This document shows positions 47,617-62,255 of a stretch of DNA of 64,000 nucleotides, one piece after another. The stretch lies in assembly GCF_050320075.1 (NCBI RefSeq), contig NZ_CP190019.1. One strand, written 5' to 3'. Source of the stretch: Escherichia coli. Its GTDB lineage: Bacteria > Pseudomonadota > Gammaproteobacteria > Enterobacterales > Enterobacteriaceae. Numbering within the stretch: the first letter of the stretch is position 1; every line of letters starts with the position of its first letter. The notes under the pieces are model-generated. The model was not told the origin of the DNA. It was given only the letters and a program-made list of their open reading frames with translations, and made no database searches. The translations under genes were made by a program, and so were the position numbers.

Positions 47617-48435
47617 GGCACTGTTGCAAATAGTCGGTGGTGATAAACTTATCATCCCCTTTTGCTGATGGAGCTGCACATGAACCCATTCAAAGGCCGG
47701 CATTTTCAGCGTGACATCATTCTGTGGGCCGTACGCTGGTACTGCAAATACGGCATCAGTTACCGTGAGCTGCAGGAGATGCTGGCTGAACGCGGAGTGA
47801 ATGTCGATCACTCCACGATTTACCGCTGGGTTCAGCGTTATGCGCCTGAAATGGAAAAACGGCTGCGCTGGTACTGGCGTAACCCTTCCGATCTTTGCCC
47901 GTGGCACATGGATGAAACCTACGTGAAGGTCAATGGCCGCTGGGCGTATCTGTACCGGGCCGTCGACAGCCGGGGCCGCACTGTCGATTTTTATCTCTCC
48001 TCCCGTCGTAACAGCAAAGCTGCATACCGGTTTCTGGGTAAAATCCTCAACAACGTGAAGAAGTGGCAGATCCCACGATCCTCAACACGGATAAAGCGCC
48101 CGCCTATGGTCGCGCGCTTGCTCTGCTCAAACGCGAAGGCCGGTGCCCGTCTGACGTTGAACACCGACAGATTAAGTACCGGAACAACGTGATTGAATGC
48201 GATCATGGCAAACTGAAACGGATAATCAACGCCACGCTGGGATTTAAATCCATGAAGACGGCTTACGCCACCATCAAAGGTATTGAGGTGATGCGTGCAC
48301 TACGCAAAGGCCAGGCCTCAGCATTTTATTATGGTGATCCCCTGGGCGAAATGCGCCTGGTAAGCAGAGTTTTTGAAATGTAAGGCCTTTGAATAAGACA
48401 AAAGGCTGCCTCATCGCTAACTTTGCAACAGTGCC
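47617..48435 (+). mobile_element. IS26, copy A (819 bp; frameshifted tnp26 allele)
   Basis: 14-bp IRs GGCACTGTTGCAAA at both ends; tnp26 split into two ORFs by a 1-bp deletion. Confidence 0.9.
47680..48383 (+). pseudogene. tnp26: tnp26 with -1 frameshift after codon ~136 and G184N-type substitution
   Basis: …KKWQIPRSSTRIKRPP… instead of …KKWQIPRFINTDKAPAYG… seen in intact copies B/C; downstream frame reads …KRIINATLGF…. Confidence 0.8.
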
Positions 48436-48571
48436 GCCCCAGCAGCATCTCCAGCTGTGAACGCTGTTCGGCTGACGGTATCAGTGCCAGTTTGTTCCAC
48501 AGGCGCAACGTCGCCTTTTCCCTTACCTCTGAAATCAACCGGGTCAGCGTAGTGGCTCCGGGGAGAATAAT
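48436..48571 (-). pseudogene. tnpA: Tn3-type tnpA internal fragment (residues ~150-195)
   Basis: Reverse translation IILPGATTLTRLISEVREKATLRLWNKLALIPSAEQRSQLEMLLG matches Tn3 TnpA as recalled; implies internal deletion across IS26 copy A. Confidence 0.65.
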
Positions 48572-48585
48572 AGTCTATCCCGGCA

Positions 48586-48963
48586 TTGCCAGTCGGGGAT
48601 ATTAAAAAGAGTATAGGTTTTTATTGCGATAAACTAGGTTTCACTTTGGTTCACCATGAAGATGGATTCGCAGTTCTAATGTGTAATGAGGTTCGGATTC
48701 ATCTATGGGAGGCAAGTGATGAAGGCTGGCGCTCTCGTAGTAATGATTCACCGGTTTGTACAGGTGCGGAGTCGTTTATTGCTGGTACTGCTAGTTGCCG
48801 CATTGAAGTAGAGGGAATTGATGAATTATATCAACATATTAAGCCTTTGGGCATTTTGCACCCCAATACATCATTAAAAGATCAGTGGTGGGATGAACGA
48901 GACTTTGCAGTAATTGATCCCGACAACAATTTGATTAGCTTTTTTCAACAAATAAAAAGCTAA
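48586..48963 (+). CDS. VOC (glyoxalase/bleomycin-resistance-like) family protein, 125 aa
   Basis: Small AT-rich ORF with TTG start; identity not verified. Confidence 0.4.
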   Translation: MPVGDIKKSIGFYCDKLGFTLVHHEDGFAVLMCNEVRIHLWEASDEGWRSRSNDSPVCTGAESFIAGTASCRIEVEGIDELYQHIKPLGILHPNTSLKDQWWDERDFAVIDPDNNLISFFQQIKS

Positions 48964-49282
48964 AATCTATTATTAATCTGTTCAGCAATCGGGCGCGATT
49001 GCTGAATAAAAGATACGAGAGACCTCTCTTGTATCTTTTTTATTTTGAGTGGTTTTGTCCGTTACACTAGAAAACCGAAAGACAATAAAAATTTTATTCT
49101 TGCTGAGTCTGGCTTTCGGTAAGCTAGACAAAACGGACAAAATAAAAATCTAAATATGCTTGAACAACTTGTAACTTAAATTCATAACTGTATTTTGCCA
49201 TAAAAAATGACCTCCCATAAGTTAGATTTTTGGTCTAACTTATGGGGGTCAGTTCATTCTACACTTGGGCTGCATGTTTTGA

Positions 49283-49675
49283 TTAATTATCTAATATCTC
49301 CGGATCTCCTGTAAAGGAATATAAAACTGCCTGCATGTTTTTCAAATAAAATACGGTGAATTTCCCATCATCAGCGCTATACCAATCTCTCAAAGGCGGA
49401 TTTGCTTCAAGCATTGCTTCCCTTGCTTCCACGGTATCATCAATTACGGCTTCGCCGGTGAGCCGAATCCATTTTCCTTTTGCCATACCTGAGACTTCCA
49501 CCTTTGAATTTGCCAATAACTGCTGATAAACTTTTTTCTGATTGGTTGTACCAAGATAGACCTTGCCATTCCTCTCCATGGCTGCATTAAACGGTCTGAC
49601 CCTTGGCTGGTCTCCTTCAACGGTTGCAAAATAAAAAGTTTTTGCTTCATTTAAAAAATCAACAACTTGACTCAT
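49283..49675 (-). CDS. Pyridoxamine 5'-phosphate oxidase-like FMN-binding family protein, 130 aa
   Basis: AT-rich ORF; family assignment by general resemblance only. Confidence 0.4.
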   Translation of the reverse strand: MSQVVDFLNEAKTFYFATVEGDQPRVRPFNAAMERNGKVYLGTTNQKKVYQQLLANSKVEVSGMAKGKWIRLTGEAVIDDTVEAREAMLEANPPLRDWYSADDGKFTVFYLKNMQAVLYSFTGDPEILDN

Positions 49676-49957
49676 CCTTTTTTACCTCCATAAATAAATT
49701 TTTCTTTACTTTTCTTTGACCTAAATTCCACGTGCATTTTTTATTAGCTTAAAAGAACACTATTTCACGAAGAATTTAAACTGATACTCCCACATTGTAA
49801 CATTATTTACCACCACCTTTCAATCTTTTTCAATAAATTATTGATTGCAACTTTTGAGTAAAGATACTTATTAAACCCTGCAAGTTATCCACAGAGCAAC
49901 ACTCGATTTTCAAGATGATATCTTTATTATACCAGACATTTTTCATACACTTCCTTG

Positions 49958-60606: not shown

Positions 60607-60607
60607 T

Positions 60608-60667
60608 GTCTAACAATTCGTTCAAGCCGACCGCGCTACGCGCGGCGGCTTAACTCCGGCGTTAGAT
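60608..60667 (+). other. attC (59-be) of the aadA2 cassette
   Basis: GTCTAACAATTCG…internal inverted repeats…GGCGTTAGAT. Confidence 0.65.
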
Positions 60668-60769
60668 GCACTAAGCACATAATTGCTCACAGCCAAACTA
60701 TCAGGTCAAGTCTGCTTTTATTATTTTTAAGCGTGCATAATAAGCCCTACACAAATTGGGAGATATATC

Positions 60770-61117
60770 ATGAAAGGCTGGCTTTTTCTTGTTATCGCAA
60801 TAGTTGGCGAAGTAATCGCAACATCCGCATTAAAATCTAGCGAGGGCTTTACTAAGCTTGCCCCTTCCGCCGTTGTCATAATCGGTTATGGCATCGCATT
60901 TTATTTTCTTTCTCTGGTTCTGAAATCCATCCCTGTCGGTGTTGCTTATGCAGTCTGGTCGGGACTCGGCGTCGTCATAATTACAGCCATTGCCTGGTTG
61001 CTTCATGGGCAAAAGCTTGATGCGTGGGGCTTTGTAGGTATGGGGCTCATAATTGCTGCCTTTTTGCTCGCCCGATCCCCATCGTGGAAGTCGCTGCGGA
61101 GGCCGACGCCATGGTGA
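60770..61117 (+). CDS. qacEdelta1: QacEdelta1, SMR-family efflux protein (115 aa)
   Basis: [69 protein letters not shown]…. Confidence 0.9.
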
Positions 61118-61436
61118 CGGTGTTCGGCATTCTGAATCTCACCGAGGACTCCTTCTTCGATGAGAGCCGGCGGCTAGACCCCGCCGGCGCTGTCACCGCG
61201 GCGATCGAAATGCTGCGAGTCGGATCAGACGTCGTGGATGTCGGACCGGCCGCCAGCCATCCGGACGCGAGGCCTGTATCGCCGGCCGATGAGATCAGAC
61301 GTATTGCGCCGCTCTTAGACGCCCTGTCCGATCAGATGCACCGTGTTTCAATCGACAGCTTCCAACCGGAAACCCAGCGCTATGCGCTCAAGCGCGGCGT
61401 GGGCTACCTGAACGATATCCAAGGATTTCCTGACCC
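61111..61436 (+). pseudogene. sul1: sul1, 5' 108 codons only (truncated by IS26 copy D)
   Basis: [73 protein letters not shown]… then IS26 IR. Confidence 0.85.
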
Positions 61437-62255
61437 GGCACTGTTGCAAATAGTCGGTGGTGATAAACTTATCATCCCCTTTTGCTGATGGAGCTGCACA
61501 TGAACCCATTCAAAGGCCGGCATTTTCAGCGTGACATCATTCTGTGGGCCGTACGCTGGTACTGCAAATACGGCATCAGTTACCGTGAGCTGCAGGAGAT
61601 GCTGGCTGAACGCGGAGTGAATGTCGATCACTCCACGATTTACCGCTGGGTTCAGCGTTATGCGCCTGAAATGGAAAAACGGCTGCGCTGGTACTGGCGT
61701 AACCCTTCCGATCTTTGCCCGTGGCACATGGATGAAACCTACGTGAAGGTCAATGGCCGCTGGGCGTATCTGTACCGGGCCGTCGACAGCCGGGGCCGCA
61801 CTGTCGATTTTTATCTCTCCTCCCGTCGTAACAGCAAAGCTGCATACCGGTTTCTGGGTAAAATCCTCAACAACGTGAAGAAGTGGCAGATCCCACGATC
61901 CTCAACACGGATAAAGCGCCCGCCTATGGTCGCGCGCTTGCTCTGCTCAAACGCGAAGGCCGGTGCCCGTCTGACGTTGAACACCGACAGATTAAGTACC
62001 GGAACAACGTGATTGAATGCGATCATGGCAAACTGAAACGGATAATCAACGCCACGCTGGGATTTAAATCCATGAAGACGGCTTACGCCACCATCAAAGG
62101 TATTGAGGTGATGCGTGCACTACGCAAAGGCCAGGCCTCAGCATTTTATTATGGTGATCCCCTGGGCGAAATGCGCCTGGTAAGCAGAGTTTTTGAAATG
62201 TAAGGCCTTTGAATAAGACAAAAGGCTGCCTCATCGCTAACTTTGCAACAGTGCC
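61437..62255 (+). mobile_element. IS26, copy D (819 bp; same frameshifted allele as copy A)
   Basis: IRs GGCACTGTTGCAAA; tnp26 ORFs identical to copy A (61500..62203 region). Confidence 0.9.

Follow-up and report, generated by a model that had tools for sequence, protein, structure and literature searches.

In the reference form of the insertion sequence IS26, perfect 14-bp terminal inverted repeats enclose, within about 820 bp, a single intact gene for a 234-residue DDE transposase, Tnp26. A variant, IS26-v1, which encodes a G184N form of Tnp26, was reportedly described by Pong and colleagues in FEMS Microbiology Letters in 2019, and its nomenclature is said to come from Harmer, Pong and Hall, in the Journal of Antimicrobial Chemotherapy (JAC) in 2021. 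IS26-v1 is distinguished by three nucleotide changes, two of which give G184N (PMC9412624), and enhanced activity of the G184N transposase is described for IS26-v1. Tnp26 is reported to act preferentially in cis. Frameshifted IS26 on its own forms no copy-in cointegrates; when it is paired with an intact IS26, targeted conservative cointegrates arise at a frequency about 30-fold lower, and when both partners are frameshifted there are no cointegrates (Harmer, Moran, & Hall, 2014, PMC4196232). The subject here is a naturally frameshifted IS26 allele, two copies of which (A and D) lie beside two intact copies (B and C) in a stretch of 64,000 nucleotides of Escherichia coli DNA (RefSeq assembly GCF_050320075.1, contig NZ_CP190019.1; hereafter the window). 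A and D are frameshifted pseudogene copies of IS26-v1, a known kind of sequence that is already flagged in RefSeq, where the Prokaryotic Genome Annotation Pipeline (PGAP) labels the identical sequence 'IS6-like element IS26 family transposase, frameshifted'. The explanation that we favour, with a probability of roughly 0.8, is that A and D represent a catalytically dead IS26-v1 pseudogene allele of single origin that has spread by hitchhiking, with alleles exchanged at fixed junctions, and that they belong to two independent junction modules rather than to a transposon bounded by a defective pair.

Two IS26 alleles in one resistance region

Four full-length copies of IS26 were found in the window by a repeat search and a four-way alignment. 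The copies and the diagnostic positions within them are as follows.

47617-48435, + strand: IS26 copy A, 819 bp; IS26-v1 backbone with a frameshifting deletion-insertion (delins), terminal inverted repeats intact
47680-48192, + strand: truncated tnp26 frame of copy A; 170 residues, made up of residues 1-133 of Tnp26 and 37 out-of-frame residues
48075-48081, + strand: mutation cluster of copy A, from alignment and base check; silent G459A at 48075 (an IS26-v1 marker) and the TTCA to TCC delins at 48079-48081 (the frameshift)
48228-48229, + strand: AA dinucleotide of the G184N codon in copy A; an IS26-v1 marker, out of frame from the upstream start
49958-50777, - strand: IS26 copy B, 820 bp; reference allele with intact 234-residue Tnp26
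55984-56803, - strand: IS26 copy C, 820 bp; reference allele with intact 234-residue Tnp26
61437-62255, + strand: IS26 copy D, 819 bp; frameshifted IS26-v1, with the truncated open reading frame (ORF) at 61500-62012, the delins at 61899-61901 and AA at 62048-62049

Copies A and D are 100% the same, B and C are likewise identical, and the two pairs are oppositely oriented. The nucleotide alignment thus bears out a first-pass annotation of the window, which had recognised two alleles, an identical 819-bp pair and an 820-bp pair with intact Tnp26, and had seen that the 819-bp copies share one orientation and bracket the oqxAB and integron segment; A and D do enclose bleO, oqxAB and the dfrA12-aadA2 integron. 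All four copies have the expected length of about 820 bp and their 14-bp terminal inverted repeats (GGCACTGTTGCAAA) are perfect at all eight ends. A and D are near-identical to the reference over their full length, differing from B and C in 5 of 820 alignment columns (>99% identity). In IS coordinates the differences are G459A, which is silent in a proline codon, T464C coupled with deletion of A466, and GG613-614AA in the G184N codon; the central change is equally readable as loss of one T of TT463-464 together with A466C, that is, TTCA to TCC. The downstream G-to-N change had been noted correctly in the first-pass annotation. It had also placed a 1-bp deletion after about codon 136; the deletion is real and its position close enough, the frame changing at F134, but the accompanying substitution and the silent G459A had been missed. 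Residues are numbered here from M1 of MNPF..., in which the substitution is G184N and the catalytic residues are D78, D138 and E173 (D82, D142 and E177 in the numbering of Harmer et al., 2014).

The frame that opens upstream in A and D runs into a stop codon at 48190-48192 (A) or 62010-62012 (D), and the 170-residue product retains the DNA-binding N-terminus and D78. With the correct frame lost at codon 134, D138 and E173, which are the second Asp and the Glu of the DDE triad, are never made, so that the two copies are defective and cannot supply their own transposase, as had been proposed at first pass. The single intact 234-residue transposase gene expected of IS26 is present in B and C and absent from A and D, which are therefore IS26 pseudogene copies, in agreement with the PGAP label on identical sequences. 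Since the G184N codon is never read in frame in A and D, it is a marker of ancestry and not a functional property of these copies. Public databases name the 170-residue product (P0001, from 47680-48192) misleadingly, as 'Aldehyde dehydrogenase' (a UniRef cluster name) or 'hypothetical protein'.

The ancestry is given by the remaining differences. In related plasmids, the intact copies whose product is the G184N transposase (WP_001067858.1) are distinguished from reference IS26 by exactly A459 and AA613-614, and the position of the third IS26-v1 marker, A459, was taken from these copies together with the published statement of three changes (PMC9412624). All three markers are present in A and D, which on this comparison are IS26-v1 plus one small complex frameshifting mutation; owing to the extra delins they have more than the exactly three differences from IS26 that define IS26-v1, and so are a derivative of IS26-v1 and not IS26-v1 itself. 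The mutation would have arisen once, as a change of TTCA to TCC at IS positions 463-466. Conversion of the patch from the neighbouring IS6100 was considered as its source and rejected, the homologous IS6100 stretch (CCTGCCACGCTCAATACCGAC) being unlike the mutated IS26 patch. An in-frame allele of IS26-v1 with A466C (I135L and G184N, WP_113368077.1) occupies the tnpA-IS26-bleO junction of pHNLDF400 (NZ_KY019258.1, locus L014, IS26 at locus positions 265-1084) and is on only 5 contigs; because C at 466 is common to it and the frameshifted allele, it is likely either a precursor, from which one T was then lost, or a revertant. Other minor alleles were encountered in related plasmids. At the same tnpA-IS26-bleO junction, pXDL-CTX-M-14 (NZ_CP043034.1, locus L015, IS26 at 265-1084) has a hybrid with G459 of the reference and AA613-614 of IS26-v1, which looks like a recombinant of the two, and in pEC21-2 (locus L001) two of the four copies, at locus positions 5960-6779 and 17423-18242, are IS26-v1 with C379A (Tnp26 L106I, WP_131149487.1).

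Recurrence of the frameshifted allele at two junctions

A 51-nt signature centred on the mutation, built so that wild-type IS26 cannot seed matches, was found at 176 places in 153 plasmids of the PLSDB collection, from seven genera (Escherichia, Salmonella, Klebsiella, Proteus, Photobacterium, Raoultella and Morganella). Among 5426 complete E. coli genomes, 82 contain it, at 98 places of which 8 are chromosomal. The whole 819 bp recurs at 100% identity in at least 40 plasmids, compared with more than 5000 plasmids that carry IS26 at ≥99% identity; in a collection of 15 billion proteins the exact 170-residue product is on 86 contigs, and the reference Tnp26 and its G184N form are on at least 1000 each. 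The signature thus recurs across many laboratories, and the change is a complex delins rather than an error in homopolymer length, by virtue of which assembly artefact as the source of the allele itself is largely excluded. The first-pass annotation had allowed for such an artefact and for the four copies proving identical on realignment; the four are not identical, and an artefact could bear only on which copies have the allele in this particular assembly. A limited literature search found no description of this frameshifted allele, only the papers on IS26-v1 and, in one Salmonella study, an unrelated single-base deletion at +376.

The allele sits mainly at one junction, a truncated Tn2-type tnpA followed by IS26 and bleO (the position of copy A), and more rarely at a second, a truncated sul1 followed by IS26 and IS6100 (the position of copy D). 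In a flank survey of 11 loci, fetched from diverse hosts and replicons with sister plasmids excluded, the frameshifted copy has the left flank of copy A (the truncated Tn2/Tn3-type tnpA, with CTCAGTCGTTTC running directly into GGCACTG) in 9 of 11 and its right flank (GCCCCAGC, then bleO and a pyridoxamine-phosphate-oxidase family gene) also in 9 of 11. The left junction string, CTCAGTCGTTTC directly followed by GGCACTG, is identical in loci L002-L005, L008-L012, L014 and L015. Where the context varies, one canonical flank is kept each time: the left flank is new in L006, and the right flank is new in L010 (a recombinase gene) and L011 (blaTEM). L007 contains a truncated frameshifted IS26 copy.

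When the stretch that runs from the frameshift site into bleO was used as query, with filtering by e-value, the IS26-bleO junction was found in 379 plasmids. Shares of the alleles at this junction were estimated from an even-step sample of 60 rows, as listed.

100% identity, 19 rows: frameshifted; extrapolates to roughly 114-126 records
99.8%, 2 rows: one is the in-frame IS26-v1 allele with A466C
99.7%, 15 rows: the value expected for intact IS26-v1, assigned by identity alone
99.5%, 12 rows: two were fetched, L015 being the G459 and AA613-614 hybrid and L016 an intact IS26-v1 with a single-nucleotide polymorphism in the flank
99.1%, 11 rows: five differences, as expected of reference IS26
Partial match, 1 row: 86% coverage at 100% identity

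The frameshifted allele thus accounts for about one third of the 379 plasmids. Recombinants with the frameshift but lacking AA613-614 were absent from the 60 sampled rows, a non-exhaustive count. The junction of copy D, in which sul1 is cut after codon 108 and IS26 is followed by 15 bp and IS6100, was found in 28 plasmids, 6 of them with the frameshifted allele, 13 with a copy at 99.7%, 8 at 99.6% and 1 with a divergent copy, so that the usual occupant is intact IS26-v1. The frameshifted allele is at the sul1 junction in CP142584, CP019282 and CP123591, the last two having two frameshifted places each, and in pHB42-2, where frameshifted, IS26-v1 and reference copies stand side by side and no bleO/oqxAB module was seen in the first 50 kb.

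The frequency of a dead allele at its main junction invites the question of whether the frameshifted gene might be functional in some other way, either by yielding full-length Tnp26 through programmed -1 frameshifting or because a putative 170-residue product has been selected as a trans-acting inhibitor that stabilises the resistance region. Programmed frameshifting of the IS1/IS3 type was rejected, as neither an X XXY YYZ slippery heptamer nor a homopolymer of five or more is present in the overlap of the 0 and -1 frames (IS positions 423-576). That the truncated protein might be regulatory is conceivable, although the present observations lend the idea no support: the M1-P56 fragment of Tnp26, which the product keeps, binds the IS26 terminal repeat by itself, although only at much higher concentration; the product also keeps F4 and F9, for which the original authors suggest a possible role in multimerisation. 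It is very unlikely, in our estimation, that the product is made and acts as a trans-dominant inhibitor, occupying IS26 ends or poisoning Tnp26 multimers and so damping IS26-driven deletion and rearrangement of the flanked resistance region; were this so, it could help to explain the persistence of a dead allele at about one third of bleO junctions and in seven genera. The abundance of the allele is, however, fully explained by linkage to one successful junction, and its ready replacement by intact alleles at that junction argues against strong selection to keep it. An adaptive function of either kind is accordingly the least probable of the alternatives weighed here, and the pseudogene reading is retained.

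Probable allele exchange and the mobility of the bracketed segment

Neither PLSDB nor the set of complete E. coli genomes gave a 100% match to the window in a single piece. The closest records to the window, pEC21-2 (CP060900) and p14406-FII (MN823988), have the same four junctions, occupied by different alleles. In the following lines these are given in the order A / B / C / D (FS, frameshifted; ref, reference; v1, IS26-v1).

Window: FS / ref / ref / FS
p14406-FII (MN823988): FS / v1 / v1 / FS
pEC21-2 (CP060900): v1 / v1+C379A / v1 / v1+C379A

A similar difference is found within a single conjugation series. At the truncated sul1-IS26-IS6100 junction (positions 801-1619/1620 of loci L017-L019) the frameshift is present in the donor plasmid pHB42-2 (CP104079) and in the transconjugant fusion plasmid pHB42-F1 (CP104327), and intact IS26-v1 is present in the transconjugant fusion plasmid pHB42-F3 (CP104331), with identical flanks; either the assemblies are noisy here or gene conversion took place within the time scale of laboratory work. 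More generally, turnover may reflect exchange of alleles between copies at unchanged junctions or mis-assignment of alleles among repeats by assemblies, and both probably contribute. Candidate routes of exchange are gene conversion, double exchange and a conservative reaction with an intact partner, mediated by Tnp26.

Multi-copy repeats of 820 bp are a weak point of hybrid assembly and polishing. It might therefore be supposed that, although the allele is real, the pattern of frameshifted A and D with reference B and C was assembled or polished from mixed reads of near-identical copies, as would accord with the disagreement of closely related assemblies over the alleles at identical junctions and with the scattered indels by which pEC21-2 differs from the window. 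This is unlikely. In p14406-FII, an independent record, the frameshifted allele occupies the same two junctions, which argues that the placement of A and D is real; the frameshift is at the sul1 junction in CP142584, CP019282 and CP123591 also; the position of copy A is the canonical junction of the allele in about 120 plasmids; and the change is a delins and not a homopolymer error.

The favoured explanation, a dead allele exchanged at resident junctions, would account for these observations in the following way. A and D cannot supply transposase, yet would remain substrates for recombination because their terminal inverted repeats are intact. The allele would have spread by hitchhiking inside a successful bleO/oqxAB-associated resistance module among Enterobacterales, Morganellaceae and Photobacterium. 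As many near-identical IS26 copies share a cell, alleles may have been exchanged repeatedly at fixed junctions, through RecA-dependent homologous recombination or gene conversion, or through Tnp26-mediated conservative exchange driven by an intact partner. In other plasmids these junctions are occupied by intact IS26-v1, hybrid or reference IS26, which means that the allele at a junction is exchangeable, and for copy D recombination or gene conversion is hence a simpler account than mobilisation. The frameshift patch most likely reached the truncated sul1-IS26-IS6100 junction by such exchange; where IS26-v1 was resident, conversion over a few base pairs would suffice.

The competing possibility is active mobilisation, in which Tnp26 from intact copies (B and C, or others in the cell) acted in trans to copy the defective IS to the sul1 site or to move the A..D segment as a pseudo-compound transposon. 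The intact terminal repeats of A and D, the intact IS26 copies present in cis, the capacity of frameshifted IS26 to join Tnp26-dependent targeted cointegration with an intact partner, and the altered flanks around the frameshifted allele in several records are all compatible with it. The flanks tell a different story. No 8-bp target-site duplication was found at any of copies A-D, those of A being GTCGTTTC on the left and GCCCCAGC on the right and those of D CCTGACCC and CTCAATAC, nor around the A..D pair, with outer flanks GTCGTTTC and CTCAATAC, nor at any frameshifted copy examined in other records; copy-in transposition of the defective IS was rejected on these grounds. Of the 28 plasmids with the truncated sul1-IS26 junction, 21 have an intact allele there, so that a frameshifted copy was not required for the insertion. 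Every variant context except D keeps one canonical flank, as expected of exchange at a resident IS, and both the reported cis preference of Tnp26 and the failure of two frameshifted partners to form cointegrates speak against mobilisation, as does the confinement of the full A..D arrangement to a few sister plasmids. Mobilisation in trans is accordingly decidedly unlikely, and passive persistence with hitchhiking is best supported by the lack of target-site duplications, the fixed-junction pattern and the published assays.

It follows that A..D does not form a discrete mobile unit. Its two ends, A and D, have the same orientation (both +), as the bounding copies of a pseudo-compound transposon are, but both are frameshifted, so that neither boundary is active; there is no 8-bp duplication; the full arrangement, sought in PLSDB and among complete E. 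coli genomes, is in only 7-8 closely related records and not in unrelated locations; and either junction can occur where the other is absent. The first-pass annotation had proposed that the segment could move only by homologous recombination or with Tnp26 supplied in trans. This was a fair list of options, of which the data favour homologous recombination, but its implicit view of A..D as a coherent movable unit does not hold, because the two junctions recur separately.

Several considerations weigh against the explanation that we favour. A single origin is argued from the identity of a complex mutation rather than from a phylogeny, and gene conversion from polymorphism at fixed junctions rather than from direct observation. 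The placement of alleles in individual physical copies rests on assembly, and errors of repeat-aware polishing could mimic turnover, the pHB42 series included. Finally, three origins are conceivable for the in-frame IS26-v1 allele with A466C: precursor, revertant or edited sequence.

Genetic context and comparison with known systems

The order of elements is truncated tnpA, IS26(FS), bleO, the oxidase family gene, IS26, oqxAB with its regulator, IS26, a truncated resolvase gene, intI1-dfrA12-aadA2-qacEdelta1-truncated sul1, IS26(FS), IS6100 and mphR(A). The features other than IS26 are listed below.

46314-47616, - strand: fragment of a truncated Tn2/Tn3-type tnpA, directly adjoining copy A on its left; where other loci share the identical junction, the PGAP label is 'Tn3-like element Tn3 family transposase, incomplete'
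48574-48963, + strand: bleO, encoding a bleomycin-binding protein; an ORF, annotated in the sister locus L013 (coordinates transferred) and in L002-L009 and L012
49283-49675, - strand: pyridoxamine 5'-phosphate oxidase family gene; ORF and annotation transfer
51034-52209, + strand: oqxA, in the Tn6010-like module between B and C
52233-55385, + strand: oqxB, in the Tn6010-like module between B and C
55455-55934, - strand: gene for an Rrf2-family regulator, divergent, in the Tn6010-like module between B and C
57752-61436, + strand: class 1 integron with intI1 (57752-58765, - strand), dfrA12, a DUF1010 cassette ORF, aadA2, qacEdelta1 and truncated sul1
61111-61436, + strand: sul1, cut after codon 108 by copy D; ORF and annotation transfer
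62256-62270, + strand: 15-bp spacer (CTCAATACTCGTGTG) between copy D and the inverted repeat of IS6100
62271-63150, + strand: IS6100, the conserved right neighbour of copy D, followed by mphR(A)

Copy C cuts a tnpR-like resolvase gene (56804-57073, of which the first 90 or so codons are left) upstream of the class 1 integron; in pHB42-2 this same integron retains an intact TnAs1-type tnpA and resolvase gene. The junction of IS26, 15 bp and IS6100 recurs in pHB42-2 and in sister plasmids. Positions 1-44002 of the window match positions 1-44000 of pEC21-2, a ColV-type IncFIB/FIC plasmid with iss, iroBCDEN, an omptin family protease gene and genes for colicins V, B and M, at 99.94% identity, which places the frameshifted IS26 copies in the resistance region of a hybrid virulence-resistance plasmid. 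By this match, positions 1-44000 contain iss, iroBCDEN, the omptin family protease gene, mig-14, cvi, cbi, cma and cmi. Direct repeats at 11666-11965 and 31935-32234 (99% identical) are, by comparison with pEC21-2, two IS1B copies flanking the iss and iroBCDEN cluster. Near 9.2-10.7 kb there is also a group II intron reverse transcriptase gene, and near 38.8-42.6 kb a gene for an 'anti-phage transmembrane ATPase'.

These observations leave the accepted picture of IS26 activity as it was; a hitchhiking pseudogene is ordinary, and the practical value of the finding is modest. The frameshifted IS26-v1 allele is a convenient natural marker with which the bleO/oqxAB-associated module can be traced and recombination between IS26 copies scored. 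Since related plasmids have several alleles (frameshifted, IS26-v1, hybrid and reference) at identical junctions, the allele at a given junction should not be taken as a stable character of a lineage, and assemblies of regions with multiple IS26 copies need checks at the level of reads. Nor should inferences about the mobility of a resistance segment presuppose that its bounding IS26 copies are active.

Set beside the known systems, A and D share with reference IS26 (820 bp, 234 residues, here copies B and C) their ends and their role as boundaries of resistance modules, but differ from it at five positions and are transposase-null. With IS26-v1 they share its three markers and the terminal repeats, the rest being identical to IS26; IS26-v1 is, however, 820 bp long and makes the G184N transposase, which the 819-bp copies with their frameshift at codon 134 cannot do. 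The intact pair B and C, directly oriented (both -) around oqxA, oqxB and the regulator gene, resembles the Tn6010-type arrangement of IS26-oqxAB-IS26, a likeness drawn from gene order and not from the Tn6010 reference sequence. The A..D pair, directly oriented about a 13-kb segment, recalls the IS26-bounded pseudo-compound transposons, and is set apart from them by its inactive bounding copies, its lack of a duplication and its absence as a unit from unrelated contexts. There is a further parallel with the engineered IS26-FS-L and IS26-FS-R (PMC4196232; Harmer & Hall, 2015, PMC4676283), in which tnp26 is likewise frameshifted and the ends are intact. By analogy, the natural allele is expected to form no copy-in cointegrates alone and to engage in targeted conservative cointegration with an intact partner at a frequency about 30-fold lower. 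The difference lies in what is left of the transposase, FS-L leaving a peptide of 30 residues and the natural allele 133 native residues that include the whole DNA-binding N-terminus and the first catalytic Asp.

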